From Candidatus Hadarchaeota archaeon (GTDB lineage Archaea > Hadarchaeota > Hadarchaeia > Hadarchaeales > JAGGTB01), in assembly GCA_964608515.1 (NCBI GenBank), contig CAZSNS010000003.1, positions 11,360 to 68,311 of the forward strand: a DNA stretch of 56,952 nucleotides, in the 5' to 3' direction. Within the stretch, counting starts at the first letter, position 1. The number at the start of each line of letters is the position of its first letter. Of this stretch, positions 13,604 to 55,000 are shown one piece after another. A program made the translations under genes and the position numbers. The notes under the pieces were generated by a model, which had not been told where the DNA came from, made no database searches, and saw only the letters and a program-made list of their open reading frames with translations.

Positions 13604-14614
13604 TTAGAGAGCTTTTTGTCCAAATTCTTCATTTTCCTTGTTAGATGGCACAATATCGGGCTTTTTCTTCTTATTTTCCTCCTCTTTCGGTGTGTCTGTA
13701 TAATTATTCTCTCCAAGAATGGAAACTGTTATTACTCTCACTAATGGTGGTCCTCCGTCAAGTCCGGAGTGGATTTTTAATCCTCCTATCTTAACTTTTT
13801 CTCCGATATAATCATCTAGGTTGTTTTTTTCGCTTTTTAGAGCATATATAAGCTGATTTTCTTTAGTAATAGCATGTGTTCCGTACGTCCAGGTTGTAGC
13901 TTCTAAATCTTTTAACATACCTGATATGATAATTTTTTTCTCCCCTTGTTTTTTCTTATCCGTTCCCTCAATCCTGTTTTCTATATCTTTAATAATCCCG
14001 TCAATAGTGTTATTTTTGTTAGTAGCGTTTTTGATCTCTTTTGTGACTTGTTTTCGCTCCTTTGCAATGTTCTCTTGAATTTCTGTTATCCTAGTTTGTA
14101 ACGATTCTCTAGCCTTCTCAGATATTTTCCCAAAAGAAGGGGCCTCCCGACCTATATTCTCCAGCACTTTTAGACAACGAGAACTTTGTTCTCTTGCTAA
14201 CATTATGGCTGGTCTAGCTACTTTGGGAGCTTCATTTTCAAGATTTTCTAAAACAGTAGAATGTTTTTTAATTGCTTTCATAGCTCTATTTAGGTCTTGA
14301 TTGTCCTCTGAACGTTTTGCAGCTTCTGCGAAATGATTTTCTGCTTCTGAAAGTATTGAAGAGTATTCTTCTGCTTTTCCTTTCTTGACCATATGTTGGA
14401 ACTCTTCCGTTCTCTCTTGACCTCTCTCTATTTCCCAATTTTGTCCGTCAAACACTGGATTTTTTATACTCTCCCCTGCTCTTTCCAAAGCATATATAGA
14501 ACTATCGGGTTGTGTGTCTATTTGATCAACTGCGACAGGAGTACCTATAGTCCCTCCTGCTACAGCTAAAAAAGCAACTCCAATTGCCATTGTGGCTAAT
14601 CCGGCTTTATTCAT
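13604..14614 (-). CDS. Secreted or anchored alpha-helical repeat protein, family unassigned
   Basis: N-terminal hydrophobic anchor, ALERAGESIK...WEIERGQERTEEFQ, and one RAMKAIKKHSTVLENLENEAPKVARPAIMLA unit. Paralog of 14679..15848. Confidence 0.6.
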   Translation of the reverse strand: MNKAGLATMAIGVAFLAVAGGTIGTPVAVDQIDTQPDSSIYALERAGESIKNPVFDGQNWEIERGQERTEEFQHMVKKGKAEEYSSILSEAENHFAEAAKRSEDNQDLNRAMKAIKKHSTVLENLENEAPKVARPAIMLAREQSSRCLKVLENIGREAPSFGKISEKARESLQTRITEIQENIAKERKQVTKEIKNATNKNNTIDGIIKDIENRIEGTDKKKQGEKKIIISGMLKDLEATTWTYGTHAITKENQLIYALKSEKNNLDDYIGEKVKIGGLKIHSGLDGGPPLVRVITVSILGENNYTDTPKEEENKKKKPDIVPSNKENEEFGQKAL

Positions 14615-14678
14615 GTTTAATATTTCTCCATATCTTTTACCTATTTAAAAAATAAAAAATGAAAGGGATTGCTGGATT

Positions 14679-32062: not shown

Positions 32063-33040
32063 TTAGATGAGTTTTTTGACTCTTTGAAAAATGGTTATGA
32101 GGAATTTGTAGTTTGAAACACTTGTTAGGAGAATTAAAGATAAGTAAGGAGTGTATTTGAAAAATAAAATTACTGAAAAACAAAATTGTATGATTCCGAA
32201 CATTCCGATATTAATGAAATCCGCGTATATCAAAGGAACTTTGTATTTCTCTCTTATTTCCGGATTAATTTTCGGATGGATTAGATATAGTATTGTCAGG
32301 GGGATTAGAACTATAAAAAAATACTCTACCTTTAAAACAAAAAAGGTTGAGAGGATGAAAAAAAGAGATACTGGGATGAGGGATGCTTTCTTCAAAATTT
32401 TTTCGGTTTTCTCCAATCCATATTTTACTGCTAATGTTTTCACTTCAGTTTTCTTATCGGTTTGATAATCTTCAATAATTTGATGATTTACAAGATCAAC
32501 GAAGCAAATCGTCCAATAAAGAACAGAGAATATCAAGACATCGACTCCGAAATATCCCAGAAAAGTGATTATGAGTAAAAAAAGAGTAAGTTCTGAAAAA
32601 CTATTTGCTATCGGGCCCCAAATTCCTTTTTCTTTAAACCTGAATTTTGGGTGGGAGTAAAGTATAGCGGATAGGATGCCTAGTAAGTGAAGTATTATGA
32701 AACTTCCAAGCAGTCTCCATGTTATATAGAGTGAAATAGCTATTGATATTGATAGGATCGTTATTCCTTCGTTTTTAGAGAATCTTGTAATTCCGGTATT
32801 TTTGCCTGCTTTTAGATCGAGTTTTTTATCGTAAAGATCATTTAGAGTCGTTCCCCAGAAGAATGAGAGTCCAAGTCCGACTAGTAATATGAGAAAATTG
32901 ATTAAGAAGTTGAAGTTGAATTTTTCTTGTACTAATATGATGTAGTAGCTTACTGGTAAGAGCCAGCTTAGTCTTTTGAATAAAAAAAAGCTCCAGCCTC
33001 TTAAATTAAATATTTTTTTAAGAATTTTGAACTCCTCACA
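32063..33040 (-). CDS. UbiA-family prenyltransferase-like membrane protein; start codon unresolved
   Basis: The frame is open from 33040 (just after TGA 33043-33041) to stop 32063. The unlisted N-terminal part reads ...LLVGLGLSFFWGTTLNDLYDKKLDLKAGKN (NDxxDxxxD). There is no in-frame ATG/GTG/TTG before the listed TTG at 32536. ATGATG at 33044-33039 is out of frame with the long ORF by one nucleotide. Confidence 0.6.
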   Translation of the reverse strand, partial: CEEFKILKKIFNLRGWSFFLFKRLSWLLPVSYYIILVQEKFNFNFLINFLILLVGLGLSFFWGTTLNDLYDKKLDLKAGKNTGITRFSKNEGITILSISIAISLYITWRLLGSFIILHLLGILSAILYSHPKFRFKEKGIWGPIANSFSELTLFLLIITFLGYFGVDVLIFSVLYWTICFVDLVNHQIIEDYQTDKKTEVKTLAVKYGLEKTEKILKKASLIPVSLFFILSTFFVLKVEYFFIVLIPLTILYLIHPKINPEIREKYKVPLIYADFINIGMFGIIQFCFSVILFFKYTPYLSLILLTSVSNYKFLITIFQRVKKLI

Positions 33041-33289
33041 TCATTTTATTTATTCTTACCGGAATTTTAGGTTAAAAATTGCGAAATAATCTTAAGTTTT
33101 CCAAAAAAATTAAAATCTTGTAAGAATTCGAAGATAATATTTTTCGGTTTGTTATATCTTTAGGGGGTATAAAGTTTTAATTTTAGTTTTAAAGCAAATA
33201 TTTTCATTTATTTAGAGGAAGGTAAATTTTTTGCTTTTTTCCTCCACTGATTTTTATTAAAGGTCCATCTAATAATTGGTACTGAGAAT

Positions 33290-34051
33290 ATGTTTCGGGA
33301 GAAAAATAACTATCATGAAAAAGGAAGTAGAGGAGTGAGTGCCACTAGTGTGATAGTGTCCATATTAATAGTGATAGCTGCAGTAATAGGTGGAGCGTAT
33401 TTAATATTTTTGAGAGAAGACATTGAGGAAGGAAATGGATCTGGGAACTCTCCTGATCAAGATGGAGGGGGTGATGGAGGAACCTTTTCAAATACTTTTC
33501 CTTCCCAAATTGGGCAAGAACTAATATACGAGTCTTCGGGTGGAGCCGTTTTCTCGGTTGAGGTTACTGGGGAAAATGCTGTTTTAGGAAAGGATACTTT
33601 CCGGGTGAGGGCAGGTTTCGGTAAAAAAGAGGCTTTCGTTTATGTAGGTAAAAAAGGCAATGTTTGGCGGTATGAGACCACTAATGATCAATACTATGTT
33701 ATTAATCATGATACTGGCAAGTATTTCAAATCTACAGGAGAAAATGGGGAATTTCAAGGAAATCAACTTATTGGCCCCACTCCGTATATAGGGGCTTGGT
33801 GGAAGAACAAAACTTTATCTGTCGGTAAGACATTTAATGTATCTAGCTGTTCTATTGAAACTCAATGTTCGGATAGTATGACGGTCGAATCTAGTGAAAA
33901 TATTACTGTACCAGCCGGAGAGTTTGAAACTTATAAAATAAAAGAGTCCGCAAGTAATTCTTTTATATATGTGGATAAGGATACGGGTGTTTTAATAAAA
34001 ATAGAAAGTTCTGAAAAAGAATTATATTTGAAAAATATAACAGGATTGTAA
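33290..34051 (+). CDS. Signal-anchored extracellular protein, unknown family
   Basis: N-terminal TM VIVSILIVIAAVIGGAYLIFL, a Gly/Asp linker, then a ~190-aa probably beta-rich domain. Confidence 0.5.
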   Translation: MFREKNNYHEKGSRGVSATSVIVSILIVIAAVIGGAYLIFLREDIEEGNGSGNSPDQDGGGDGGTFSNTFPSQIGQELIYESSGGAVFSVEVTGENAVLGKDTFRVRAGFGKKEAFVYVGKKGNVWRYETTNDQYYVINHDTGKYFKSTGENGEFQGNQLIGPTPYIGAWWKNKTLSVGKTFNVSSCSIETQCSDSMTVESSENITVPAGEFETYKIKESASNSFIYVDKDTGVLIKIESSEKELYLKNITGL

Positions 34052-36085: not shown

Positions 36086-37933
36086 ATGTACATTGTAAAT
36101 GGTAAAAAGGTAATGGAAAATATCATGTTGTCAAAGAGAAAAAAAATTTTAACAGCCGCTTCATTCCTAATCACAATCTTCCTTATTAGCACTATCTTTG
36201 TTTCCTCGGCTTATGCGGCCGATGATTGGGAAGCTAGGTCGTCAATTCGTATTACTGGTGATGGTGAGTTTACAGAGGCTCAGGGAGTTGTTTCTGGTTC
36301 AGGGACTGTTGATGATCCTTACGTTATTAGTGGTTGGAAGATTGGTTCTGAGGATGGTCCTGGCATTTTGATAAAAAATACTAGAGAGTATTTTGTGATT
36401 GAGAATAATTTAATCGAAAATGCTGGTGTGAGAGGGGATGGTTTTGATAATTATTATGGTGTTCGTCTTGAAAATGTGAAAAATGCTGAACTAAAAAATA
36501 ATTTGATTAGATTTAATTTTGGCGGAGTAGCTCTTGATAATTCCTCTAAAATTTCTCTGACAAGGAATGATATTGAATCGAATTATATAGGGGGGGTAGT
36601 GGGTTACTCAGCAAGGAAGAGCAATTTTCATAATAATGAGATTTTGCGAAATGGGCTTGTTGGTATTACTACATTTTTTTCGGAGAATAATAGGATAATT
36701 AATAATACTATTGCGAGAAATGGGAACAAAATATATGAAAAAATTATAAATGTTGAAAATCCTTCGGAAAAATACCGAGCGGTTCATTCAGGAGTTTTTC
36801 TTCTTGCTTCTCAACATACACTTGTGAAAAATAATATCATAAGTTCAAATCAAGGTTATGGAATTGGTATTTCTTCATACAGTTTTCTCCAAGGAAATCT
36901 TGTAGTGAGTAATAATATTTTTGCCAACGAAGACTATGGAGCTTATTTTGCGTCTAGAACTCAGAAAAATGTAATTCATCACAATAACTTTAGAAATAAT
37001 GGGGGGGAGAATTCACAAGCATATGATAATGGCGTTAATCAATGGGATAACGGATATCCTTCCGGAGGGAATTATTGGGGTGATTACCCGGGTCAGGACC
37101 AAAAAAATGGGGAAAATCAAAATCTTTCCGGAAGCGATGGGATTGGAGATAGTTCATATAATATTGATGGATCGGGAAATAAAGACAGTTATCCTTTGAT
37201 GAAAAGTACTTCAAAAAAATATTCCTTGACTCTAATTACGGAACCGGAAAATGCAGGTACGGTTTCTGGAGCCGGATCTTATTACGAAGGCGAAAGTGTA
37301 CTTATCGAGGCTCAGCCTAAACCCTCATACGAATTTGATTATTGGTCTGGCGATTTATCGGGTTCGAGAAACCCACGAGAAATATTGATAGATTCGGATA
37401 AAACTGTGGTTGCTCATTTTTTCAGGACGAAAAAAAGTAAAATAATTCCTGTTTCTGGCGGAACTATAGAAATCAAAAAAGCCAAGATAAGTATTCCGGC
37501 TGGAGCACTTAAGGACGAAACCAAAATAACCATGGAAAGAGTTAGTGAGATTTCTCCAAAAGGTCTCAAACTTATTGGTCCAGGTTTTGTTTTTTCTCCA
37601 GAAAATCTAAATTCAGATTTGCCGATTCAGATTACATTGCCATATGATGATAGTTTAATTCCGAACGGGGGGGTTGAGGATAATTCAAGGATTTATAAAT
37701 TCGATTCAGATTGGTATTCTGTTGGTGGTATGGTACGGAGTGAAAATAATACTGTAACTGTCTCAGTGGAAAATCTCGGTAAATTTGGAGTTTTTATTGA
37801 TATTTCTGAACCAGAGAACGGTGATAACGGTGATAGTTATTCTCTTCTTTACATTTTTGTAGGATTTTTATCTCTTGTTTTTTTGACGTTGATTATCTTT
37901 TTAGTTTACAGTTGGAAGTTTTCCGGGCAATGA
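36086..37933 (+). CDS. Right-handed parallel beta-helix (NosD/PbH1-repeat) surface protein with an InlB-B-repeat-like domain and a C-terminal TM anchor
   Basis: Signal peptide ...SSAYA. PbH1-type turns IENNLIENAG..., LKNNLIRFNFGGVALDNSSKISLTRNDIESN and NIISSNQGYGIGI. YSLTLITEPENAGTVSGAGSYYEGESVLIEAQPKPSYEFDYWSGD is the B-repeat-like part. C-terminal LLYIFVGFLSLVFLTLIIFLVY is the anchor. Confidence 0.8.
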   Translation: MYIVNGKKVMENIMLSKRKKILTAASFLITIFLISTIFVSSAYAADDWEARSSIRITGDGEFTEAQGVVSGSGTVDDPYVISGWKIGSEDGPGILIKNTREYFVIENNLIENAGVRGDGFDNYYGVRLENVKNAELKNNLIRFNFGGVALDNSSKISLTRNDIESNYIGGVVGYSARKSNFHNNEILRNGLVGITTFFSENNRIINNTIARNGNKIYEKIINVENPSEKYRAVHSGVFLLASQHTLVKNNIISSNQGYGIGISSYSFLQGNLVVSNNIFANEDYGAYFASRTQKNVIHHNNFRNNGGENSQAYDNGVNQWDNGYPSGGNYWGDYPGQDQKNGENQNLSGSDGIGDSSYNIDGSGNKDSYPLMKSTSKKYSLTLITEPENAGTVSGAGSYYEGESVLIEAQPKPSYEFDYWSGDLSGSRNPREILIDSDKTVVAHFFRTKKSKIIPVSGGTIEIKKAKISIPAGALKDETKITMERVSEISPKGLKLIGPGFVFSPENLNSDLPIQITLPYDDSLIPNGGVEDNSRIYKFDSDWYSVGGMVRSENNTVTVSVENLGKFGVFIDISEPENGDNGDSYSLLYIFVGFLSLVFLTLIIFLVYSWKFSGQ

Positions 37934-38110
37934 ATTTTTGATAGGTGCTATCACTTTCTTTTTGATTTTATTCCATTGCATTTGTGTTTTCTCTTGTGTA
38001 CTTTTTTCTTTTTCATCAACTTTAGTGATAACTTAAGTGAATAAGTTTATATGACTATATAACGAGTTCTGCGAAAGGTTTAAATACCTTTAATGGAATA
38101 ATAATTACCA

Positions 38111-38140
38111 GACCTGAGTTGGGACCGAACGGGACTGGAC
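38111..38140 (-). repeat. GC-rich motif copy A (inverted orientation)
   Basis: + strand gacctgagttgggaccgaacgggactggac; reverse complement gtccagtcccgttcggtcccaactcaggtc. Confidence 0.75.
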
Positions 38141-38184
38141 ATCCCATTACTAATAGGTGCATAAGGACCTTAATGGACGAGCAC

Positions 38185-38196
38185 CCTGAGCTGGGA
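38185..38196 (-). repeat. GC-rich motif half-site B
   Basis: cctgagctggga is the reverse complement of tcccagctcagg. Confidence 0.5.
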
Positions 38197-38404
38197 AAGA
38201 AGAAAATAGTAGTGTGAAGTGCATTGGTATAGAATGAAGAGCACGGATCGAGAATGAAATAGGATAATAGAGTCCTTGCAAAGAAAATTAAGAAAATTAT
38301 GAAAATAATAAAGGATTTAGGAGAATATAATTATGGAAAATGAACTTTTTTTGAAAATATCGGATTCTTTTCAATTTTCATTTATAAAGGGGTTTATAAA
38401 TAAG

Positions 38405-38428
38405 TCCCTGAGTTGGGACCTTTTTGGG
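38405..38428 (-). repeat. GC-rich motif copy C (inverted orientation, first arm degenerate)
   Basis: tccctgagttgggacctttttggg; reverse complement cccaaaaaggtcccaactcaggga. Confidence 0.65.
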
Positions 38429-38533
38429 TAATACCTTATGTTTTAAAAACTTTATAAGTACACTTATAAGTATTAACAACCATTAACGGTGTTAGTGAAG
38501 CTTTATTAGGGATAATTCACACCAAATGTACAT

Positions 38534-38567
38534 GGTCCAGTCCAAAATAGGGTCCCAGCCCAGGTGT
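38534..38567 (+). repeat. GC-rich motif copy D, overlapping the GTG start of 38564..39931
   Basis: ggtccagtccaaaatagggtcccagcccaggtgt. Confidence 0.75.
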
Positions 38568-39931
38568 GCTTATTGCAAACATCTTCAGATGAAAGTATCC
38601 ATAATGGAGATTATACTCAATCGAGAAAAGGAATTAAAGAATCAGCAGGTGGTGGGTTTGGCAAAAAGGGAAATTCTGCTCAAACTACTCTTTCTATACT
38701 ATTGGTTTTTCTCACACTTATCTCTGCAGTTACAGGTATCTTGATATCGGTACCTTTTGCTAGTTCTTCAGAGACAGTATTTGAAGAAGTTAGTTATACT
38801 TGGAGTCAGGAAGACTCAGAGGATTTTGAGAGAGGAACTTTAGATAATGTCTCTATAGAAGGATCGGATTCAAATTCTCAAATAGTTTTGAATGTTTCTG
38901 AGTCTTCAACTGCTCAGGAAAGTGGTACAGATGTACCTTTTAGAGTTCAAGGCGATATATCCGCGGTTGGGAGTTGCGCTATAAAAGGTATAGGAGGGGT
39001 TAAATCTTCTCGCAACAAGGGTAAGAGGAGTTTCGGAAAAAAATTGTCTAATCCTGTGAAACCAAATCGGATCAGTTTCTATATTCGTCCGATGGATGTT
39101 GCAAAGGAGATGAGAACTAGTTTCCAAGGAGCTGGGGAGAGGGAAGGTCCTGTTATAACAACTAAAATAGAGAGGGGGGGTTATACTTCGTCCGGGTTTA
39201 TAATGGCGGATGATGGTACGGTAGGAGGAGTGGCTGTAACTAATTATGGTTCTCAATGGACTAAAGTTACTCTAGAGAATATTGATTTTTCTACTCATAC
39301 TTATGACTTGGTTTTGGAAGGTTTAGAGTACGGGATTACTAACTCTGTTTCCGATATTAAATTCAAGCAGAATATAAATAATATTTCCTCAGTGCGTTTG
39401 ACTGTGGGTTCTGAGTCAGTGTCTTATTGGGATTGTATGAAGATGGATGGAGCTTCTGTCTTCGATTTGAGCGGGCCAAGGAAGCTTATTTCGGATCTTC
39501 AGGCTGGTTCGGAGATGGAGGTTGCGGGTACATTTGTATCTCCTGTTTTTGATACTTACCAGAATGTTGGTGATGGCGAGGTAAAGAATGTTGAATATGA
39601 TGAATTGGAATGGTATGGTAGCGGTCTTGATGATATTAGAATTCAGATTGCTTACTCTGAGAATGGTTCGGATTGGAGTGGTTTTGTGGGGCCTGATGGT
39701 ACCGGTCAGACTTATTATCACGATTCTTCACCTTATTCCCATAAGGCCACAAGGTCTGTTGGTGGGCGTGGTGGGTATAGGTATGTGAAATACAAAGTTT
39801 ACTTCTTGAATTCCGAGGAAGCTCCGAGACTGGATGGAGTTGAGATATCTTATACAATTACTAAATCAGACTCACCAACTGGTGAAAGAGGGACGGTGAC
39901 ATATCGTTATGAGGTTTCACAATCCGATTGA
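38564..39931 (+). CDS. Secreted or anchored protein, unknown family, ending in the shared ~95-110-aa module
   Basis: Charged N-terminus, then the hydrophobic stretch TTLSILLVFLTLISAVTGILISVPFASS. The C-terminus GTFVSPVFDTYQNVGDG...IRIQIAYSENGSDWSGFVGPDGTG...GGYRYVKYKVYFLNSEEAPRLDGVEISYT resembles giant-ORF modules. No in-frame ATG exists, so the start is GTG 38564 or TTG 38573. Confidence 0.65.
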   Translation: MCLLQTSSDESIHNGDYTQSRKGIKESAGGGFGKKGNSAQTTLSILLVFLTLISAVTGILISVPFASSSETVFEEVSYTWSQEDSEDFERGTLDNVSIEGSDSNSQIVLNVSESSTAQESGTDVPFRVQGDISAVGSCAIKGIGGVKSSRNKGKRSFGKKLSNPVKPNRISFYIRPMDVAKEMRTSFQGAGEREGPVITTKIERGGYTSSGFIMADDGTVGGVAVTNYGSQWTKVTLENIDFSTHTYDLVLEGLEYGITNSVSDIKFKQNINNISSVRLTVGSESVSYWDCMKMDGASVFDLSGPRKLISDLQAGSEMEVAGTFVSPVFDTYQNVGDGEVKNVEYDELEWYGSGLDDIRIQIAYSENGSDWSGFVGPDGTGQTYYHDSSPYSHKATRSVGGRGGYRYVKYKVYFLNSEEAPRLDGVEISYTITKSDSPTGERGTVTYRYEVSQSD

Positions 39932-39963
39932 GATAGAATCGGTTAGGATTAGTTAGGATTCAA

Positions 39964-39996
39964 GGTCCAGTCCCAAAAAAAGGTCCAACTCAGGTC
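39964..39996 (+). repeat. GC-rich motif copy E, ending 5 nt before ATG 40002 of the giant ORF
   Basis: ggtccagtcccaaaaaaaggtccaactcaggtc. Confidence 0.75.
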
Positions 39997-40001
39997 ATAA
40001 A

Positions 40002-43000
40002 ATGCCCAACTCAGATGGGGAAACCCCAGTTAATCAGTCGGTTAGGCAAAACGCTTACCCCAGCCAGGAGAATGTCTTTTTCTCCGTAATTATAATCATT
40101 TTATTCTCAATATCAGGTTCCATAGGTTTTCTTTTCTTTTCCCATGCTGGGCTGGGCGGACTGGACCGTGGAAACCCGACCCAAAGTGACTATCTCGAAG
40201 ACGAGACCAATGAGATCGGTGCAGGTGTGGAGAACGTTGGAGACCCGACTTTGTTAGATATGTTCGGTGTTTTCGTAGATCATATGACAGGTGGCTCGCT
40301 TGGAGCTGGATCTGAATTTGGAAAAGATTTAGATATACAAGTGGAAGAACATCTCATTGCTGGAAACCCTGGGCCACCTGTTCTACAAATAGGACGAATG
40401 AATCAGGATTCTAGCTCCCCTCTCTCTGGGGGTTTGAGGGCGGAGCTGGATGGAGAGATTGAGGATTACTACCTTGGAAAGACTAGTACTGATCCTGATC
40501 CAGGTCCTGGTACAACTTTGATGGCTAATGGTAGCACTATGGGATTGTGCGATTTAACGGGACTTTGGGAAGGTTCCTATATGGGAATAAGTGGAAGTGG
40601 TCCTTCTCCTGTGGGTGATGGTACCAGCTACGATACCCTCACCCTTGGCCCCTTAGGCCATATCAATTTTCATAGCGGTCAATTAGGTGTCAACGTTGAA
40701 GACCCAATGAAGCTGCAATGGTTCACCCACATAACGCTAGACAGTTTAGTAATAGAAGGATTAGGCTACCCACTAGGACAAATAGATTCCAGACTTATCG
40801 ACAGCTCATGGCCAGCAGACAATGACTCTGGAGGAATGCTCGGCACCATGATTTTAGAAAGAGCTGAAATCAACTACCTAAATATTCACCTTCAAGAAGA
40901 TTTCGGCATGAGCATGATGGGTCAAAAATTCAACTTCGACGAACTAGAAATGGAATCCAACAACCTACTAGTAAAACACATGGGACCCGAACCCGGTGTT
41001 AACTGGGGGGACCCTCCAGAAGTTTCACACCCGGCAGCTTTCGGCCCAATGAAAATAGAAATCGTGGACGTAGGCCAATTAGACTTGAAACATTTGAGGA
41101 ACTTCAACGTCGACATTTCTGAAGTCGGAGTAGGTCTAGACGATTTGAGTTTGAATATGGACACCCTAAATATTAGAAATATATGGTCCGAAAGCATGGA
41201 GTTTGAAAAATTTGACATGAACAAACTAAACATAGGCCTACAAGGTTTAAACATAGACTCCGGAGCAAACGTTCCAATACCTCTCATGGGCACCCAAAAC
41301 AAACAACAAGTAGACCTTAAAAACCTTGACATGGGTTTGAACAACCTACAACTAAGAAATATGAGCGGACTCACAGCCATGGAAAGTGGCCACTTCGACT
41401 CATTTGTTATAGAAAATGTGAAAGATCTAAGAACAAAACTCCCGACCGAATTCACAGAAACTTGGAACGAAGAACAAGACTGGTTCAAAGGCACATCACA
41501 AAAAACTAGAGGTCCCAATGGCTCCCTCCGGCTAGACACAAATACTGTATGGGAAGGAGCATTGTGGTTTGATTCTGACGGAAGCAGCCTCACCACAACC
41601 CCACCCAACAATGAACAAACCGTACAATTTTACAGCGGGGATGGTTGGCCTCATAATTATGGTTGGCTCGATGAGGTTTATGTCTCTGGTGGATCGGATA
41701 TTCTCGTTGAGGAAGATGATAAATGGATAGCACAGTTGAAGGGACCCGGAGGTTTCTTTGATAAGGGCGTGACTTCAATGAGGGGAGAATATGCTCATAA
41801 GTGGACTTATCCTCATGAAGTTGAAATTGATCCTTCAGCTGGAGAGGATCTTGTAGTGGAGTACAAGGCGTCTGCGTCACTTCATGGAAAGACTAACTCA
41901 TCGAATACTTACAATTTCACACTAGACAGTTCCGATGTGCCTAGTGGCGCTCGGATTATCGAACCGACTTCATGGGATATCCACACTGAGCTTTATGGAA
42001 ATAATTATTCTGATATTACCATAACCGTATTGGGCATCGATTATGATACGGGTACTGGTGGAGGGTCTTGTGATCTTTATTGGAAATATGGGGATAAGGA
42101 TACGGCACCGTCGAGGATTGAAAATGTAAAATTTGCTTCCGGTTACTATGATAGTGGAACTCACACTTCAGAATGGCGAGATATGGGTGGAAACGTTGTT
42201 TGGGAAAATATACAAGTAAATGCCGGTATTCCAGCTGATACAAATGCTACAGCTGTAATTATTTCAAGTGAAGACGGAGCAAACTGGACCGATAGTAAAG
42301 CCATAGACTTACAAGACGGAAGTCATACCTATGACCTATCTGATTTAGAACCAGCTAAATACTTACGAATAGTGACCAACCTTTCAACTTCAGATCCCCT
42401 AAAAACCCCTAAGGTTCATGAATATAACGTGAATGCATCTACTAAACGGTGGGGTGGTCAATTAGCTCTTTATCTAGATAATCTTTCCGTTAATCTGACC
42501 AATCTGGATTTAGAAGAAATGAAAGGTATGAGTTGGGACAAACTCAACTGGGACGACTTGAATGCAGGTATAGACGATATTGATTTACTCTCTGCTTATA
42601 ACCAAAAAAACGTCTCTGGCTCTTTCAGCAGTTGGAAAGATCTCGACCAAGAAGATTGGATAAACTACTTAGAATCTAACTCTACACTCTCCTCAGGAGA
42701 CAGAGCAGCAGCAGTAATCAAAGTGGATAACAATACTGACCATACAACGATAACGGACACCACCGTCAGAGCACTAGACGGAGGAAAAGAAAGATTTGAT
42801 ATACAAGCAAAACCAGTACTTAATTTCGACGGCTCTGGTGATTATGGGGCAATTCAAGACCTACACTATGATACTGCGGGGGGAATATCGGAAATAACGG
42901 TAGGAGCATGGGTAAAAACGACCAGTTCGGACTATCAAATAATCTCATCTTATGATGCCAACGAATATTGGAGATTCGCCATAGGGAGTTCATGGGATGG

Positions 43001-46000
43001 AGCAGGAAGTAAGGGCTACCCAGCTTGGATAACGGCGAGCAATGGTGCAGGAAACCATAGCATGGTTGGAAACACGAAAGTCAATGATGGTGAATGGCAC
43101 CATTTAGTTGCAACTTATGATTCTTCCACTGGAGAGATGGGACTGTATGTGGATGGAAAATTAGATGCCACAGCAGAACCATATCCTGACGGAACAAACT
43201 TAGGAACGGGAACAACTAGATACGGATTCATTGGAACCGGGTCAGAAGCGTCCGGTTATAACGGTACTGTGGGTCCGAGTGAATGGATGAACGGATCACT
43301 CGATGATTTATATATTTACAACAATGCGCTTACAGAAAACGAAATCCAATCCATTTACAACAAAGACAAGTACATTCAAAACAATTTAGTTGGATATTGG
43401 CCTTTGGATGAGAGTCAAGGCGATAGGGCTTATGATTTATCCGGAAACAATAATCGGGGAGTCCTTCAAGGAGATCCAGAATGGGGGATAAGGGATAAAC
43501 CGAGTCTAAAAGACCATCAATACTATAAAGTCGACACGAAGGAGGATTGGTGGGATGTTGACCGTTATTTGTTATTTTCCGGGAAAGGGTCTCTTAGAAT
43601 AAATAATCTCGACATAAAACTTCCAAATGTGAGAGTTAATGACCCTGGAAAAGTGTTGACTTCTTGGAAAAGCCTAACTTCGGATAACGCTGTGATAGAA
43701 GTTCAAGACATACAAGCAGACACTCGAGGAATCGAATACAATATGAACGACCTCCTCGCCAACTGGACCGGTTTCAAATCCTCAGTTGACCGAGTCGGTT
43801 TAGGACCAGTTGTGAGCTGGGCTGTGGGTTCTGAATCCGAATGGGAAAAAGGTGTTATGGATAATGTGGAAGCGGATTCGCCAGAAGGCGAGTTAGAACT
43901 CGGATATCGCGACGGAGATTCAAAAGAGGGTCTTACCAGTTATTGGAGGTTCGACAAGGAAGAAGGAAGTGTGAAGGATTACTCAGGAGAAGGTAATAAC
44001 GGAACAAACTACGGTGCATCAAGAGGAGAAGTAGGAATTCTCGGTAGCGACGCTTTCTACTTTAACGGTTCAAATGATGATTATGTTCAAAGCACAGACT
44101 CAGTTCCCGTTCCTAGTAACGGTGCAATATCAGTTTGGATAAACGGTGAAATGGGCTCTCAAGTCAGTCAAAATATCTATCCCGCAGGATTTTATAAAGT
44201 ATGTCTTTTAGGACCATCAAGTGGTTCAAGTGGTAGAAGTGGACTCATAGCTAGGAATAGTGGGAGCAATTATTATTGGGATTGGGGAGATCAGAACATT
44301 TACAACGGTCAATGGCATCACTATGTCGTTACGTGGGATTCTTCGAACATTTATCTTTATTTAGACGGTCAACAAATTGGAAGTCCAAAATCTCACAATA
44401 ATAACATACCTTTTGGGGATTATAGAACTATCAACGCAGGAACAGCTTGGTCCAACGGCGGATATGGCCCCCACACAGGAAAATTAGACGAATTTCAAAT
44501 ATATGATAGACATCTTTCAGGTCAAGAAATAAAAGATCTTTATAAGAATCAAAATGGTTCTTTCCAGTCAACAGTACATGACTACGACAGAAAAGTATCA
44601 TTTAACAGTTTAAAAACCTCTTCAGTGCTGAACCCTTCACTCAAATTTGATGGGACTAGTGATTATGTTGGAATTCCTAATGATGCGAGTTTAAATCCAA
44701 ATAGTATTACAGTATCTGCTTGGGTAAGTTTAGAAAATGTTGGAAGCGGGTATAATGGAATCGTTGACAAAAGGTACAATGAAACTTATGCTTTATATCA
44801 GGATTCCGGTGATAAGGAATTTAATTGGTACGTTACGACAACTGATACTTCGTCATCTCTCAGGGATATAAGTTTGAATTTGGATGAATTCCACCACATA
44901 GCAGGTACTTATGATAGTTCTACGGGAGAGATGAGAGTATATAAAGACGGTAACTTGATCAAATCCACTACTATAAGTGGAAATCTTGCAAGTAATACTG
45001 CAAATCTTTATATAGGACTCCGGAAATCAACGGGGGATGTTTGGGATGGTCAAATAGATGATGTTCGAATCTATAATCGCGCCCTATCTCAAACCGAAGT
45101 TGAAGACCTTCACGAAAATCAACACATAACTAACGGACTCGTCGGTCATTGGCCATTCGATGAGGGTGGGGGTACAACAGCTTATGACGAGGCTTCTAAC
45201 AGCAATAATAATGGATATATTCATGGTCCTACTTGGAACTCGAATTCTTGGAATCCTAACACCGCAATCTCTGCACAAGTGGAGGTTTCGGACGATCCGA
45301 ATCTTAATTTCGATGGTTCGAATGATTATGTAGAAGTTCCAGATGAGGATTCTCTGGATATTACTGACAGGATAACTATTGCGGGATGGTTATATCTACG
45401 GAAAGATCCGGCACAGTGGAAAGGAATTGCGATGAAAGGAGGTTTCGACCCATATGGCGTATTGCTAGAAAGCGACTCAAGAGGACTTTCAGGTTCCGTC
45501 AACATCAGAGGTCAAAGACAGAAGCTGGACTCAAACTATGACCCTTCTAATATGGTTGGAAAATGGACACATTTCGTTTATACTTATGACGCTGGTTCAG
45601 GAGAAGCTCGAATTTATGTGGACAACCAACAAAGAAACAGTAGTAATTCTTTCGAAACAGGATCGATAGACATAGACCAAGACCCCCTAATCATCGGTGC
45701 CGAAGACGCTAACGGAAATCGGAGTTTTCCCGGAAAAATAGACGACCTTAAAATATATAGACGAACTCTAAACGAAAACGAAGTTTCCGACCTATACGAA
45801 AACAAACCAGTCCCACAAGGTCTTGTGGCCTCATGGTCATTCCAAAATGGTGTTGGAACCCGAACTGCAAAGGATGGGTCTGATTTCTCCCACGATGGAA
45901 CAATCCACGGCGCGAAATGGGACATGATAGTCAAAGGAACCAAAAATATTCCCGCTAGTGAAATACATGGCGGAACCGAATCTCACGGTCTTGGAGGTCT

Positions 46001-49000
46001 TCCAGAAGCCCAGTATGGAAGAGTTAAATTCGACCTCTCTAGCAATAGTATTGAAAAGTCACCCTCAATCCGAAAATTCTCCACCGATGTGAGTGCCGGA
46101 ATTATGGCGCAATGGGAGAGATTAGCCCTAACTGGAAAGGAATTACACTTTGAATTTAAAGATGATCTATTTGTAGAAAATCTAGGTCTTGAAGAGTTGG
46201 AATTAGGCCCGGTGAGTTTGGATAATTTAGAGATGGAAAGTTTAGGTTATGATTCAAACTGGATGTATGGAACTCTTGAAAACGGTGGAGTGGTTTCTGA
46301 TGATATGAAGATAAAAGGATTATTCGATATTCTCGGACCCTCGGCAAGGTTTGATAATTTCATCCTCCATCGAGATAATTTCCACGCTTTTGCGAACACA
46401 TTTTCCGCTAGAGGATTAAAATTCCGAGGAGAAAACGTGTTAGATAACTTTACAGCCAGAAACTTTGATTTCGTTTGGGAAAATTTCCATTACCAACTTG
46501 AAAAATTCAAGAAAGAAACATTCGACGCATCGGATTGGAAAGTGTCCTCTACAGAAGAATGGGATGCGGGGAATAAAGCTGACACACGAGCAGTGAGAGA
46601 TAGCCTACGGCTGGATACCAAGACAAAACATGCGGAGTGGAGATCAACTTCTGATTGGGAATCCGGATCAGGTAATAAGTACTATGTAAGATATGGGGAG
46701 TTAGGAATCGGATTCTACGACGACTTTGAAGATGGTTTATCCAACTGGAGTCCTCTCGGCGGAAGCAGCTGGACTACCACCTCCGAGGGTGAACTGAAAG
46801 CTACAAATGGAGGAGTGATAGTTTATGATGATCCGAATGTTGATTCAAGCTCTCTAGCTGATTCTACAATTAAAACTAGGACGGAAATGAAGGGAGGAAA
46901 CACCGGTATAGCCACGAGAGTCGAAGACTCTAGTAATTTTTACACACTCTATCTAGATAACGGCGGGAATATAGCTCGTCTAAGAGAGCGCTCTGGAGGG
47001 TCGTGGCAGTGGACACGGTCCGAAAGTGCCAATTACTATGAAAATACACTCTATCCTTTGAAGTTCGTAGCAAAAGGGAACAGTTTGGTCAGTAAAGAGG
47101 AGTCTAACGGTGTATTTCTTAATAACAGCGACTCAACCCATTCGAGCGGATACGTCGGTGTATATACTCCAAGTTCAGGAGCTTATTATGATGACTTTTG
47201 GCTACAGGGAGGGTACGGCTCCGCTACTTATAGGACGGAGTGGCGAGAGTTTGATAATGATGCGGCGCTTAAGACTCTCTCTGCAGATACGGTAATTAGT
47301 CCGAATCAGGGCATTACCGCTACAGTTCAGGTTTCTTCTGACGGTTCGACGGTAGCAGATTCCGTGGATAGGGTTTTGAGGAATGGTAAGAATTACTATG
47401 ATATTTCCGGATTGGCTGATGACTATCCATATGTGAGAGTCGTGTTGGACTTGAACACCAGCGATACTACTCTTTCACCGAGGGTTAAAAGCATTGGAGT
47501 TACTGAGAAGTCCGCTGAAACGTGGAAGGATCGAAACGAGTGGGCTGCAGGAAGGTTCGGTTTAGGGTCTACCCCATTCCATGAGCCTGGAAAAGAGTTG
47601 CTCTGGTCAGCTACGTCAGACTGGCGAAAAGGGTATACAGAGACGTTTGAAGATGGAGATGTCTCGGATTGGAATTTCATTTATAATGACAGTGATCCCC
47701 AGACGGGTCTTACTGACAGTCACTGTAAGGGTAGGTATGGGTTGAGAGTTGATGGGGACGATATTGCGGTATCTCCCAAGCTGGATCTCTCAGGGATGAG
47801 CGATGTAAGTATTACTGCTTATATGGATGTTTGGAGTATGGACGATGCCAGCGAGGATGGACATTTGGACTTTTATGATGGGGGTAGTTGGCACACGATT
47901 AATTCCTACCACAATGAAGACGGCAAATTCACTTACGACATTCCAGATGATTGGCTAAGCCCCAATAATAAGATAAGACTTCGCCTTGTCGGCGGGAACG
48001 GTGGAGGAGACCACGGAGTCGTTGACGAAATTTATATAAACTCCTTACATGGATTGACTGCTTTCGGTGGAAAACTAGAGTTAAAACAACTTGTACCCGA
48101 ACCGAAATTCGACGGTTGGGATTGGGACTTTTGGGACTCCGAATCTGGGGACTTAGATGAAGGTTATGCAAGTTATAGAGGATCCGGCGACAGTAGACAT
48201 GCCGAATTTCATGCAAGGACATCGACTGGTACTTGTTGGTGGCCTCCTACCGGTTGTGATAGCAGCGGTTCTCACCAAGGTTACGCTCAAGACTCTTTCT
48301 ACGTAGAGGACGCTTCTTTGGATAAGGAATTGAAATTCTGGTACGATGGTAGTGGGGGTGGTGACGGCGTGCCTACTCTTAGGATTAAGATCAATGATCA
48401 GCAAAGTTCCGGTTGGGGTTCACCCACCTATTCTAATGCTGTATCAGGTTCGGGTTCGGGCACTGTTACTTGGGATGTTACGAGCGCCTTTTCGTCACCA
48501 GGTAGGTATTATGTTCGGATTCGTACTGATATTAGCGTAGCAGCGTCGACTGGGTGGTTTGGTAGCGATTCTGATGAGTTCACATGGCAGGTGGATGACC
48601 TTTACATTTCTTATACGGAAGGAAAACACGTAACAGCTTGGCAGGATATGGGAGCTACTGTCGATTGGAATTATCTTAACTACCAAACCTCGATAGCTGG
48701 CGGAGAGGGTATAAATACAACGATAGAGGTAGATGATGACTCCAGACATCTTTCCGGAGTGTCATCAACTAAGCTAGGATTAGCTGACGGTTCATACGAG
48801 GAAGATCTCTCCAAACTCAAAGACGGAAAATATATAAGAATGATATCCAAGCTTTCTTCTTCTAATACACCAAATTCACCTACTCTCAGTAGGTATGAAA
48901 TCACATACGACACGCCCGAAGTCACGTCTTTAAAATCTCAAGACCTAATTGGTTTCTGGAAGTTCGAAAGCCCCGACGATGAAAAAGTTTTCGACGAAAC

Positions 49001-52000
49001 AGACTACAAAAATAATGGTAAGATTCGACACGAAATAGAATTGACCAGCAATTCAGAATGGTCACCTACCATTTTCTCATTTGACTATAATTCGGATACA
49101 GGTTCAAGCTCCCACGCCCATATAAGAAATAGCAAAGTTTCACTTGGAATTTATCCCCCAGAGCCCAGATTTGATGGATCGAATTGGGATTTCTCGGGCA
49201 GCACCACCGATTCATACGGGTACTCTGGGAATCGAGGACATTGGAGTTCAAGCCTGTCGGGAGGAGACCCGTGTCATCCTGTAGATAAAAGTACAAGCGA
49301 TGACGGTTACGCAGAGGATAGTTTCTATGTCGATGTTGATGATGTCGGTGATGAGACTATATCTTTTGACTGGGAAGCAAACATATGGAATAATGATGGG
49401 GATGACAGTGCTTCAGGTAGTCTAACGGTTGAACTTATAGATCCGGGCGGTAGCGTAATAGCTTCTGGTAGTACCGGAACAAAATCCAGCGACGGTACTG
49501 GAACTGTGACATTTAACGTTAGTTCTTCGGATTGGTCAGGTTCTGGAACCTATACAATACGAGCCCACGCGCATATAGACTTATCACTCCACGTTAACAC
49601 CGGTAATAATGACTCAGTAGGAATGGAGTGGTACGTTGACGGTGTTTGGCTAGGATTTGACTCCGGATGGCACGAAACACCATGGACGGACATGGGAGAG
49701 GACACGCCTCTGGGTGGTTTAGAAGCAAAAGCCAACATTGGTAGTGGGGATTCGATAAGTGCAACAATATATACCGACCCTGATTCCGATCACTCTAATG
49801 GAAACGAATCTTCGGTAAACGTAAACCTTTCTAACGGGACAAGTTGGCATGATATCTCGTCCTTAGCCTCCGGTCGGTACGTGAAAGTCAGGACGGATTT
49901 GTCGACCGATCGGAATTGGAGTAACGTTTCAGAGGTGGATTATTATGACATTTATACAGAAAAACCCTCTTATGAACATTGTTACGTGAGGAATAATAGT
50001 GTAGGGATTGGGGTCTACCCGGCAGAACCCGAGTTCGACAGTAATAATTGGACTTTTGGACAGAGTGGAAGTAGTGGGACCGCTAAGTATAGGAATGAAA
50101 AGGCTTACTTTTATTCAGGTGTCGGTTGCGATGCTACTGTAGGGTCGTGTAGTGACTCAAAAAATTGGTATGGTTATTCGGAAGACCAGTTCTATATCGA
50201 TACTCTGGGTATGAAAAACACTCAAACTCTAACTTACGACTGGGATGTGGACTCCAATACTCATGGGGATGGAGACGCTAATATTAATCAATCTAAACTC
50301 TGGATTTATCTTGAAACCCCCAGTGGTACTACGCATCTTCTAGACTCAGTAGATACGAACAATGGCTCCCAGAATGATAGATCTGTGAACATACCTGACT
50401 CGTATTGGGAAGTTTCCGGTCAGTACAAGATTCGAATGAGAGTAAGAATAGACACCGACGTAGATGTAGGCTTGCTTGAAACGAATGCTGCTGCTGAAAG
50501 TAGATGGTATGTGGACGATCTTAGAATCGGTTTCACTTCCGGTCAGCATGATACCGCTTGGAGAGACTTGGGTGAAACCACTGAACTAACTGATCTCAGA
50601 GCGGACGCTACCATTACACCTGGGCAATCAATTGATGCAACGGTGACAGTTGATTCCGATTCCGATCACAGCACTGTAGATGGTTCGACCACTGTAAGTC
50701 TAAGTGATGGGGATCATTTATTCGATATAAGCTCTCTTCCCTCCGCCCGATACGTACAAATCCAGACAAACTTCACAGCCAATTACCAGTACCCGAATAA
50801 GGCAGAGCTCCACTCCTATCAACTTATGGGTAATCCAGCTGGAGATAAGAAAAAATCAGGAAAATACGGCAATGCTATTGAACTTGACGGGGTTAACGAC
50901 TTCGTAAGGATTCCAGACGATGCCAGTCTTGACGTCACTAGCGAAGTCACCGTTTCCACCTGGATGAATATAGACAGTTATCCCAGTTCAGATAGTGCTA
51001 TTCCGTTAACTCACGGAGATTACGACGATTCTTGGTGGCTTGAACTCTACTCCGGCGGAGAATTAAGATTTTATGTAAATACAAATAACGGTCTCCGGAA
51101 AGCAATAATCAACAACGTATCCAGAAACCAGTGGGTTCACATAACCGGAACATATGACAAAGAATCAGGCCAGATAAGCGTTTATAAAAACGGTAAAATC
51201 CAAGATACGGTAGCACATTCCGGTCCTATAAAAACAACCTCAGCCCCTCTATATATGGGTAAAGGATTCGGATCAGGCTATGGTTCCAAATACTACGACG
51301 GTAAACTAGACGAAGTAGAAGTCTACAAAAGAGCACTAGCCGAAAGTGAAATCTCAGAAAAATGGGGCTTCTACACACACTGGCCATTCGAAGGAAAAGG
51401 AACGGGCAGAGCGTTCGACGCCCAAGGCAAATATGACGGAACAACCTCCGGAGGAGTTTCTTGGGTAAATGGCGGAGTTCATGGAAAGGCGTTAAAATTC
51501 GACGGGTCTGACGATTATGTGGCTGTTGATGATTTGGTTTATGACTCAACTGGAGCTATCGGTGAAATAACTGTTGCAGGATGGATTAAAACCAGTTCAA
51601 CCGATGATCAAGTAATAGCTTCATGGGACAGGGATGAATATTGGAGCCTCAACGTTGGAAGAAAGAGCTCAAACAACGAAATTACTTGGAGCACCACTAG
51701 CTCAGATGGAACAACCCATGATATGATCGGAAACACAGACGTGGATGATGATACATGGCACTTCGTGGCTGCCACCTACAGTGCTGTGACAGGCAAGAAA
51801 AAGATTTACGTGGACGGTGAATTAGATGCAGTTACACAACCTTATTCACCCGGAATACAGTTAGGAAAAGGAGAAGAAACGAGATACGGATTCATCGGTG
51901 AAGGATCTGAAGCTTCTAACTTTGACGGCGGTCGAAACAACAGTCTTTACTTTAACGGTTCCATAGACGAGTTAATGTTATTCTCTAAGGCTTTGAATTC

Positions 52001-55000
52001 TTCTGAAATGAAGAAATATATGAATCTCTACGGCGGAACGGACCTCAGCGAATATAAGAACATTAAAGAAGGATGGAGTCGAACTTCTTGGCGCGACTTC
52101 GGGCGAGAGGTGGCATGGAGCGAATTCATATCAGACGTAACAATTGAACCAGGACAAGCCATATACTCCACAGTGGATGTCACCAATCCGATTTATGAAC
52201 CTACTAGCTGGTGGACGATGGACGACGCCCACACCAGAGACAACACTCTCAAAGATTACTGGTCATCCTATGACGGCGAAATAAATGACGCTTCTCCAGG
52301 ACACACAGGAGTGTTTAACCAATCTTATAACTTCGACGGGACGGATGATTGGATTAATTGTGGCGATATAAACGTCCTTGACTCTTCATCAACCTTCACC
52401 ACCAGTTTATGGTTCAAAAGAGAAATAGATCAATCAGATGATTCAAACCATGGCACCAGTAATGTCATGTTTGCAAAGGCTAGCGATAGTGCTAATGATA
52501 TTATCGAAATAGGAACTGAAGGAAGTAATATAGAGATTTATTTAGACGCGATCGGAAATAATAAAATGGAAAGTTACAACGCAGGTATAAATAACAACCA
52601 ATGGTACCATCTTGCACTGACTTACGATAGCGGAGTAGTTAAATTATACTTGAACGGAGCCATGGTGAAGGAATGGACCGGCTGGGGCAGTCAACTAGAT
52701 GATGCTGGAAGTAGTCCTGTGACTCTTGGCAAAACCCACCATTCAGATATATACTTCGGCGGTCTAATCGATGAAGTCATGGTCTACGACAAAGTCCTCA
52801 AACATGGAGAAATACAAAAAATCAGAAACAAGATCAGAAACAAAGAAATTCGAGACAGGCAAGAATTCAGACTAGAGCACGGTCCTCACTCTCACTTCAT
52901 CCAAGAGATGTCGCCTGGTCGATACGCAAGAGTCACCACGAAAATGAGTTCAAATGACACAAGAAAATCACCATCGGTTAACAGTTATACGATATGGGAA
53001 GCTCCAACCTACAAGTCGCAAGGAAGTTATTCTATAACTCGGGATTGGGTGATGAGACGTGAATATACTGATTTTGGTGTTTCAAGTACTCTTCCTGAAA
53101 ATACTAACGCTTCTCTAGAGATACAAGTGAGCAATGACAAATCTAATTGGAATACGATCGGGAGCGACTCCGATTTAAGCGACGGATTTACTAAGATTGA
53201 ACTACCGAGCACTGCGGGTAGGTACTCTAGGGTCAAGTTTGATTTGTCCACTCAAATAGAGACTAGGACACCGGTCATTAATTACTTCACTATACGTTCT
53301 CCTGGCGGTAGCACTGTCAAGTGGCTTGAGGATAATCTGCATTGGGATAGGCTTGAAATGAACTTGGAACATTTTGTCGGTTTCAATGATGTTCTGAATG
53401 AGAACGCTGTCGAAACAATGACACTTGGGAAAGTGGACTTTTTCGACAAACTGCGGGTTGAAAACAATCTCATAGAGTTAGAAAACTTCCACTATTTAAT
53501 AGAGAACTATGATATAGTCTCAAGGGATGTATACCTTACCAATCCTGGAATAACTGATGTGTTAATGGAACAAATAGGAGATATGGGTTGGGATTATAGC
53601 GAACTGACGTGGGAAAACTTCACCTTCTCCCACGATAACATTTATGCTTATATAAAAAGCTTATCTGCAGAAGATTTGCCATTCCTCTCTGCTGGAACAT
53701 TAGGACTGGACAATCTAAAAATGGAAAACACGGTAATAAACTCTACAGACTTCCTATTCAATCTAGAAAACCTCTATTTCCTATCGGACAACGTGTATAT
53801 AGAAAATGTAGGAGTCAACGACTGGGTATACGAATCAATGGAAAACATGGGTTGGGACAACGGACAATGGGACTGGAAATTCTTCAATCTAAGAAACGAC
53901 CACCTATACGCAGATTCTGCCTATATGGACCAAGACGACTTACCCATCGGAGTCCCAGTAGATAATCTCGAATTAGAAAATCTAAAACTAAGCACAAAAG
54001 ACTTCCAATTCCGCTGGTGGAAACTAGCAGTGTGGTCAGATAACATAAACATGCACGAACCAGGCCTGCAAGACGTCCTAAAAAACTTTATAGAAAACAT
54101 GAAATGGCGCTACTCCCGACTCGACTTAGACAATATTTACGCAAAACACGACCGCTTCTACACTTCCTTAGAAAACATGACCCAAGAAGACATTCCGATG
54201 GATGTACCGATGTTTGACAATATAAAAATGGAAAACCTAGAAGCAACCTCCAAAAACTTCCTATATAACTTATTAGATCTGCGAGTCATAGCAGAAAACG
54301 TCAGACTCAGAACACCAGGCCTCACAGACGTTCCGATGGCTTTCATAGAAGAACTAGGCTGGGACAACAGCAGGCTAGAATGGGAAAACCTAGAAATAAC
54401 TAATGACTACCTCTGGACTCATGCAGAAAACCTAACCAAAGACGAAATACCTGCCGAAATACCGTTAGAAAACTTCCGAATCGAAAACCTAGAAATAACA
54501 TCAGAAGATTTCCTAGCCAACCTAATAGATCTACTATGGAAATCGAAAGGTGTTAACTCCGTGGAAAACCTTATCGCAGAATGGAAAATGGACGAAGGCG
54601 AAGGAAGTATAGCAAATGACACAGCGTATCAAAATGACGGACAACTCAAAAACGGTCCGGTATGGGATAACGGGTACTATGGAAACTCACTAAAATTCGA
54701 CGGCTCTAACGATTATGTCGAAACACCAGATGTAGTAGGTGGAGAAAACGAGATAACAATCAGCACATGGGTCAATCCCAAAGACTTTGAATCTCAAGAT
54801 AAGACAGTCGTGGGAACTTGGGGCACCCAAGAATTAACGTTATGGTATGATGTAGGAATGGACAATTGGAGCCTAATTGTTCACGACACCAATGGAAATA
54901 ATGTAAGAGTCAACGGAGGAAACCCACAAACTGGCGAATGGACACACTTGGCTGGAACATACAAGGACAACGAAAAACTAGAACTTTACATAAACGGAAC

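Follow-up and report, generated by a model that had tools for sequence, protein, structure and literature searches.

The DNA analysed here (the window) is 56,952 nucleotides (nt) of chromosomal sequence from an uncultured archaeon of the Hadarchaeota (Hadesarchaea), positions 11,360 to 68,311 of contig CAZSNS010000003.1 in assembly GCA_964608515.1. Our subject is a bipartite, GC-rich motif that recurs at the 5′ ends of two consecutive genes for membrane-anchored surface proteins. The motif is composed of a first half, GTCCAGTCC (half a), a spacer of 1–8 nt, and a second half, (GGT)CCCARCYCAG(G) (half b), and it occurs in both orientations, with all copies lying within 38.1–40.2 kb. Four copies are full (A and F on the minus strand, D and E on the plus strand), a fifth (C, minus strand) is full but decayed, and two are lone b halves. 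The locus is laid out as follows.

38072–38086, plus strand: P_A, a consensus archaeal promoter with B recognition element (BRE) and TATA box, cgAAAggTTTAAATA, matching TTTAWATA.
38111–38140, minus strand: site A, a full copy with both halves; its reverse complement is GTCCAGTCC-CGTTC-GGTCCCAACTCAGGTCT.
38141–38533, no strand assigned: the A–D segment, 393 nt of AT-rich DNA without a credible open reading frame (ORF; none longer than 43 amino acids).
38185–38196, minus strand: lone b half-site, CCCAGCTCAGG.
38346–38352, plus strand: a run of seven T residues (T7), a candidate archaeal oligo-T terminator or attenuator.
38405–38435, minus strand: site C, a decayed full copy reading AAGGT-ATTACCC-AAAAA-GGTCCCAACTCAGG.
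38534–38567, plus strand: site D, a full copy with both halves in the 5′ leader of gene 1.
38573–39931, plus strand: gene 1, a membrane-anchored protein of 452 amino acids (455 if the start is GTG 38564).
39964–39996, plus strand: site E, a full copy with both halves in the 5′ leader of the giant gene.
40002–56952, plus strand: the giant gene, open for more than 5650 codons (more than 17 kb) to the end of the window.
40005–40014, plus strand: lone b half-site in codons 2–5 of the giant gene.
40144–40170, minus strand: site F, both halves with a 1-nt spacer, inside the giant ORF (H48–G57) and directly after its signal anchor.

The pattern GTCCAGTCC-N(1-10)-CCCARCYCAG matches A (38114–38140, minus), D (38535–38563, plus), and F (40147–40166, minus), and E (39965–39993, plus) is a single base removed from it (TCCAACTCAG); the full pattern had no match in 100 dinucleotide-preserving shuffles. 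Exact occurrences of CCCARCYCAG begin at 38114, 38186, 38408, and 40147 on the minus strand and at 38554 and 40005 on the plus strand, and none falls outside 38114–40156 in the 57-kb window. The a half is exact in A, D, E, and F, with one further, unrelated copy at 53703 within the giant gene. An nhmmer search of the window with a profile of the copies recovered D, E, A, and C, and no other match, at E < 5e-5 (F had an E-value of 0.2 and the 38185 site 1.3), and all remaining matches were at chance level; marginal matches at 53.7–53.9 kb were rejected as W-D codons on the opposite strand. An earlier note on this DNA had placed motif copies at these positions and, by eye, had noticed none elsewhere, and both observations are borne out by the pattern and profile scans. 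Its half-sites at 38185–38196 (minus) and 40005–40014 (plus) are exact b matches; site C, which it had ended at 38428, is present but is really a decayed full copy reaching 38435, and a weaker half-site that it had proposed at 40057 is not significant.

Conservation within the copies is uneven. The first half is identical over 9–10 bp (GGTCCAGTCC) in the four full sites, without a single substitution. The b half has two variable positions over its seven copies (AACT in A, C, E, and the 40005 site; AGCC in D and F; AGCT in the 38185 site), and the spacers of the four full copies (CGTTC, AAAATAG, CAAAAAAA, and G) have nothing in common. Site C combines a perfect b half with a spacer that is a run of A residues and a mutated a half. 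This pattern of kept halves and free spacers indicates selection on two modules with free spacing and not decay. The copies have a GC content of 52–70%, compared to 33% for the intergenic region, and the b half at 40005 together with ATGGGGAAA forms an extended inverted repeat with F. We take the motif to be a real and sharply defined control element, seemingly under selection, for the two surface-protein genes at whose starts it sits, one of them giant.

Sites D and E both end in CAGGT(G/C) 6 nt upstream of a start codon (TTG 38573 and ATG 40002, respectively), and the first codons of the two genes align at the DNA level (TTG CAA ACA TCT TCA GAT GAA against ATG CCC AAC TCA GAT GGG GAA); we read D and E as paralogous 5′ leaders. 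The 3′ end of the b half (CAGGTG in D, AGGTC in E) likely doubles as a Shine-Dalgarno sequence. The start of gene 1 is probably TTG 38573, because CAGGTG lies 6 nt upstream of it, GGTG-type Shine-Dalgarno sequences are found at other genes in the window, and the homologous gene in the closest relative begins AAGGTGA-5 nt-TTG; this displaces the GTG at 38564, overlapped by D, that had previously been taken as the start. The C-terminal module of the gene 1 product resembles the repeat module of the giant protein, which carries an N-terminal signal anchor in codons 25–46 (40074–40139) and at least eight Laminin_G_3 domains. Directly after this anchor, site F is written in codons that are very rare in the giant gene (two CTG, a GGG, a GGC, and a CGT), and its codon-choice likelihood falls in the lowest 0.04% of 10-codon windows of that gene. 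These rare codons imply a constraint at the nucleotide level and point to F having been kept for its nucleotide sequence and not for the peptide it encodes.

On the upstream side, P_A stands alone among perfect intergenic TTTAWATA matches in the window in having no ORF within 60 nt downstream; none in fact follows within 490 nt. With the usual TATA spacing of −26/−27, transcription is predicted to start at approximately 38109, at the first bases of A. The promoter could drive a long 5′ untranslated region, or else a purine-rich non-coding RNA of about 240 nt that ends at the T7 run. T6–T7 runs are common within ordinary genes, and because of this the T7 run alone is no proof of a terminator. 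The A–D segment has a GC content of 33%, with a minimum of 21–23% at 38250–38400, is purine-rich on the plus strand, and contains TATA-like boxes at 38381, 38393, and 38442; its sense strand now carries a T7 and a T5 run, and would carry only a T5 run if flipped. The putative 240-nt RNA has no unusual or stable fold (z −0.65). No tRNA or Rfam element was detected in the window: Rfam 15 gave no match at gathering score over its whole length and nothing notable at E < 5 for 37900–40300.

Comparison with other assemblies and collections shows how narrowly the motif is distributed. The strict motif pattern returned 3, 6, and 0 matches in genome, metagenome, and viral collections, respectively, all of them single copies in unrelated GC-rich DNA, and a looser pattern searched against public genome contigs gave, among the matches listed, only chance ones in GC-rich bacteria. 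The pattern proposed in the earlier note finds nothing beyond chance in the remaining window or in public collections and is confined to the starts of the two surface-protein genes. Word-based homologue searches with gene 1 and with the N-terminal 1200 amino acids of the giant protein returned nothing, or LamG domains only; a full HMMER search yielded a handful of gene-1 homologues. Through one of these (P0125) we reached the orthologous locus in the closest relative (CAYSUV010000133.1), which consists of a 580-nt intergenic region, a gene-1 homologue, 115 nt, and a membrane-anchored gene, and in which we found neither the GC-rich motif nor any comparable inverted repeat. Because the closest relative keeps the gene layout without the motif, we interpret the motif as a lineage-specific addition to a gene pair that is itself conserved. 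A gene-1 homologue from another metagenome (41% identity; L153:60–126) has a different GC-rich tandem element, GCCGAGCCGAGGCCTTAGGCTTAGG, between a TATA-like box and the Shine-Dalgarno sequence, and GC-rich leaders may be a recurring feature of the gene-1 family. An unrelated LamG giant gene showed no comparable repeats.

A second assembly from the same population (GCA_905333425.1, contig CAJOUT010000065.1), reached through homologue P0126, covers part of the locus. Its nt 157–5179 are 100% identical to window positions 39669–44691, and because of this identity E, the 40005 site, and F have the same orientation in both assemblies. No second copy of the A–D segment was found. The first 156 nt of this contig are unrelated to the window and correspond to the 3′ end of a gene on the minus strand whose product has an HExxH motif (VIVHEIAHLHQ...); they are joined to window position 39669. 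The junction lies inside gene 1 and away from the motif sites; it reflects either a chimeric assembly or a structural variant in which gene 1 is truncated.

We tentatively rank first the possibility that a small group of DNA switches is inverted by recombination at the motif copies, with the recombinase encoded outside the window, because of the identical core, the inverted arms at surface-protein genes, the constraint on F, the clean flip in simulation, and the bacterial precedents. In such a mechanism a site-specific recombinase encoded elsewhere would act on the motif copies and exchange strands inside the identical a half, and the b half and the lone b copies would serve as accessory binding sites. 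Inversion between E and F would turn over a cassette of Shine-Dalgarno sequence, ATG, and signal anchor, leaving a body of more than 5600 codons without a start and the gene in an OFF state. Inversion between A and D would turn over the AT-rich leader between the promoter at 38079 and gene 1, taking the T7/T5 oligo-T block off the sense strand, as in the Clostridioides difficile cwpV and flgB switches. Exchanges between A and E and between D and F would also be possible, giving a multi-site system.

Several observations speak for inversion. At the 5′ ends of the two neighbouring genes for membrane-anchored surface proteins, the inverted sites A and D enclose 393 nt and E and F enclose 147 nt; both lengths are within the range (tens to approximately 750 bp) that defines the short flanked segments of invertons. 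Such segments carry or separate expression signals; E–F does so, and for A–D the TATA-like boxes within it and the consensus TATA outside it suggest as much. Exact identity of the a half is what a putative crossover core needs, and we count it in favour of inversion. The same goes for the non-random occurrence of the motif at this locus alone, for its absence from the otherwise matching locus of the closest relative, which marks it as a regulatory layer that was added, and for several traits typical of bacterial invertons, namely the length of the arms, their high GC content within AT-rich DNA, the sizes of the segments, surface proteins as targets, and a single consensus at adjacent loci. When inversions were performed in silico, E × F and D × F flips deprived the giant body of its start and anchor, and A × D and A × E flips left both ORFs intact. 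Much of the geometry described in the earlier note holds, namely that A and D flank ORF-free AT-rich DNA, that E and F flank the start codon and signal anchor of the giant gene (and its Shine-Dalgarno sequence as well), and that a recombinase gene is absent from the window. Its pairing of A with D and of E with F is geometrically sound, but the best-matching inverted partners are instead A/E (b plus a GGTC tail, 15/17) and D/F (a plus b, 20/20), which interleave. Its proposal of invertible switches gains from the identical a half, the rare codons of F, and the clean simulated flip, but no inverted configuration has been seen.

Other observations weigh against this reading. First, no tyrosine, serine, or Piv-type recombinase domain occurs in any sizeable ORF of the window. 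Second, the second assembly, which is the sole independent one, shows E–F in the window orientation and not flipped. Third, the distance of 1–8 nt between a and b is awkward for a single recombinase-site architecture, and the sites have no dyad symmetry, although the asymmetric sfx sites of shufflon invertases offer a precedent for the latter (PMC11852207). Fourth, the flipped segments give no alternative coding in simulated inversions, and the purine skew of the plus strand in A–D suggests a long-standing orientation. Lastly, inverted repeats in genomes are mostly not invertons.

One of the main ways in which bacteria vary their surface is programmed DNA inversion, which to our knowledge has hardly been examined in archaea. 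The promoter switches of Bacteroides fragilis combine one inverted-repeat consensus with a master invertase, and in C. difficile cwpV and flgB an invertible element between a fixed promoter and a large surface-protein gene acts after initiation, via termination. The present locus resembles the latter in having a consensus promoter just outside A and T7/T5 runs on the sense strand in the present orientation only, and it differs in that archaeal termination proceeds by oligo-T and not by hairpins or Rho; the effect on termination is a predicted one. With bacterial invertons, above all those of the 'partial intergenic' class (PMC10028968), and with the B. fragilis switches it shares short GC-rich inverted repeats around 150–400 bp at the 5′ end of surface-structure genes, the same repeat at neighbouring loci, and an arm that may lie in coding sequence; it departs from them in being archaeal, in its bipartite, variably spaced site without a dyad, and in that no recombinase was found in the window and no flipped state was observed. 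Invertons described so far include the 'partial intergenic' class and a few from archaea, one survey having listed only 12 putative archaeal invertons in 42 genomes (PMC10028968).

An extended version of the inversion reading, which we consider distinctly improbable, is an archaeal multi-site, shufflon-like system in which a recombinase would act on an asymmetric bipartite site with interleaved partners (A/E, D/F, A/D, and E/F); in the several resulting genome configurations, the giant LamG-repeat surface protein and the small one beside it would be turned on or off or placed under another promoter. Shufflon invertases use asymmetric sfx sites, and R64-type shufflons with the invertase Rci likewise have several asymmetric sites in both orientations over about 2 kb, with interleaved partners (PMC11852207). 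Unlike in these systems, the segments here encode no alternative protein ends, and no Rci-like gene is adjacent. A shufflon-like arrangement had also been raised in the earlier note; there are indeed many sites, yet no alternative ORF ends emerge after any simulated inversion. If inversion switches operate here, they would be a known kind of switch in a domain where it is almost undescribed, and they would provide a defined site with which to find the recombinase. Uncultured subsurface archaea would then be hedging, at the DNA level, against the very high cost and the exposure that giant surface proteins entail, and under the multi-site version an uncultured archaeal phylum of the subsurface would vary its cell surface by programmed phase variation. 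We know of no regulatory elements in the Hadarchaeota lineage, and if the motif acts instead through RNA or as an operator it would still be a compact control element for the expression of a giant gene.

Pairing between RNA leaders and anti-leaders is a possible but doubtful alternative to inversion. Here A (first in a transcript from P_A), C, the 38185 site, and F (within the mRNA of the giant gene), which are complementary to the leaders D and E, would pair with them in cis or trans, and this pairing would govern how translation is initiated or how stable the mRNA is. Such a role would suit a b half whose 3′ end is the Shine-Dalgarno sequence in both D and E, a consensus BRE/TATA that sets the transcription start at the first bases of A, and an A–D sense strand that is purine-rich like a transcribed leader. 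Predicted folds join A with D, and the a half of E plus the 40005 site with F, at z-scores of about −3.5, but any inverted repeat folds in this way, and the putative 240-nt RNA has neither a stable fold nor an Rfam match. A or F paired with either leader gives duplex energies of approximately −47 kcal/mol, yet these reveal no partner preference, and the cis pairs (A:D and E:F) are poorer matches than the distant pairs (A:E and D:F). There is no compensatory signal, because in each cis pair one of the two variable positions forms a wobble and the other a mismatch. The variable spacer is best explained by two helices enclosing an internal loop, the size of which is free; identity of the a half at two loci nevertheless suggests sequence-specific recognition that goes beyond complementarity. 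The terminator of such an RNA is also uncertain, given that T6–T7 runs are found within ordinary genes.

It is less probable, and in our view unlikely, that the copies are operator sites through which one or two DNA-binding regulators jointly control the two surface-protein genes, situated at the P_A start, in both leaders, and in the interior of the giant gene. Looping between them would be possible, for which lac O1/O2 is the DNA-looping parallel. Operators would explain the lone b copies. Conservation is sequence-specific, the b half is perfect where the a half has decayed (in C), F is constrained at the nucleotide level, and the copies, which occur in both orientations, are confined to the control regions of a pair of related neighbouring genes; A in addition sits at the predicted transcription start, the usual position of archaeal repressors. 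Operators would nonetheless have to be reconciled with non-palindromic sites, a half spacing that varies without helical phasing, and 9–10-mers that are 100% identical in four copies, which is unusual. No regulator gene lies beside the locus, the nearest helix-turn-helix genes being more than 20 kb off, and the motif is missing at the orthologous locus of the relative.

That the copies are non-functional remnants, either ends of a miniature inverted-repeat transposable element (MITE) or of a larger mobile element, or else scars left when the leader region was duplicated in inverted orientation, seems quite improbable. The motif is lineage-specific and not found in the closest relative, GC content rises from 40 kb onward, C is a decaying copy, and the reverse complement of F resembles D minus its spacer, all of which such an origin could accommodate. 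Substitutions, however, sit mainly in the spacers and leave the halves intact, which is not neutral decay, and E–F carries the essential start and anchor of an intact giant ORF. The intergenic region of the relative is moreover of similar length (580 nt, against 630 nt here). Target-site duplications are absent, the repeats have opposite polarity in A–D (b outward) and E–F (a outward), and no further copies occur in 57 kb or in public collections beyond chance matches; the MITE spanning 38111–38567 that had been suggested in the earlier note is disfavoured on these grounds.

A chromosomal replication origin, with sites like origin recognition boxes (ORBs) around an AT-rich unwinding element and a second cluster in the next gene, is very improbable. 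The AT-rich core at 38250–38400 (21–23% GC) does lie between minus-strand copies and the plus-strand copy D, long and 'mini' sites coexist, and the hexamer TCCAGT is common to the motif and the Pyrococcus mini-ORB TTCCAGTGGAACT. The Thermococcales oriC and dp1 offer a parallel for a second repeat cluster in the next gene. Archaeal origins resemble the locus in their long and short inverted repeats around AT-rich DNA and in a second cluster in a neighbouring gene (PMC4010727, PMC1904270); ORB clusters can sit in coding sequence, flanking a gene (PMC1904270), and ORB sequences are diverse (PMC4010727). An adjacent initiator gene, however, is a defining feature of archaeal origins (PMC4010727), and no orc1/cdc6 or whiP gene was found in the window with Pfam. 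The TTCC...GAA dyad of ORBs is missing, only TCCAGT being common with them (PMC1904270), GC skew keeps its sign at 38–40 kb where an origin would show a switch, the half spacing is variable, and the relative's orthologous locus has no motif. Further candidates were rejected: integron attC sites, since the outer boxes are GGTCCAGTCC / GGACTGGACC and not RYYYAAC / GTTRRRY and the window has no integrase; box C/D small RNAs, bulge-helix-bulge splicing, and clustered regularly interspaced short palindromic repeats, whose defining motifs are lacking in the sequence; and a restriction-modification signature, GGWCC within the motif not being avoided genome-wide.

Some features around the leaders and in the giant gene stand apart from the motif. 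A tandem 10-mer (GTTAGGATTA/GTTAGGATTC) lies immediately 5′ of E (39941–39963), and the 9-mer TCGGTTAGG occurs twice, 99 nt apart, flanking E and the ATG (39941–39963 and 40040–40048); both could well be chance. GC content steps from 0.33–0.38 to 0.41–0.45 at the start of the giant gene (40 kb onward), which could stem from its composition, rich in G, D, W, S, and N, or from foreign origin. The sense strand of the giant gene contains three runs of five or more T, compared to 10.9 expected from codon shuffles, and no run of six or more in 17 kb; neighbouring genes show no oligo-T depletion. Selection that spares a very long transcript from ending prematurely at oligo-T would fit these counts, and the depletion suggests that oligo-T termination matters in this organism.

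The wider window encodes TFB, FEN-1, CDP-archaeol synthase, and TrmB in addition to an O-phosphoseryl-tRNA synthetase that has 78% identity to its counterpart in the metagenome-assembled genome CAYSUV01 and 55–58% to those of other Hadarchaeota. From 33.3 kb onward the plus strand encodes a PQQ-type beta-propeller, a beta-helix protein, gene 1, and the giant gene, all of them secreted or membrane-anchored; the beta-helix protein has only distant relatives, with at most 42% identity over most of its length. A polysaccharide flippase (Polysacc_synt/MurJ-like) at 23913–25448 (minus) is split over two frames, with the N-terminal part at 24888–25448 and the C-terminal part at 23913–24836, and may represent a frameshift, a pseudogene, or a sequencing error. 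A truncated UbiA-family ORF (157 amino acids, covering profile positions 149–225 only), followed by about 750 nt of AT-rich DNA without a called gene (32063–33290), may be a degraded gene. The interval 13604–15848 (minus) encodes a pair of neighbouring DUF5667 paralogues, 336 and 389 amino acids long.

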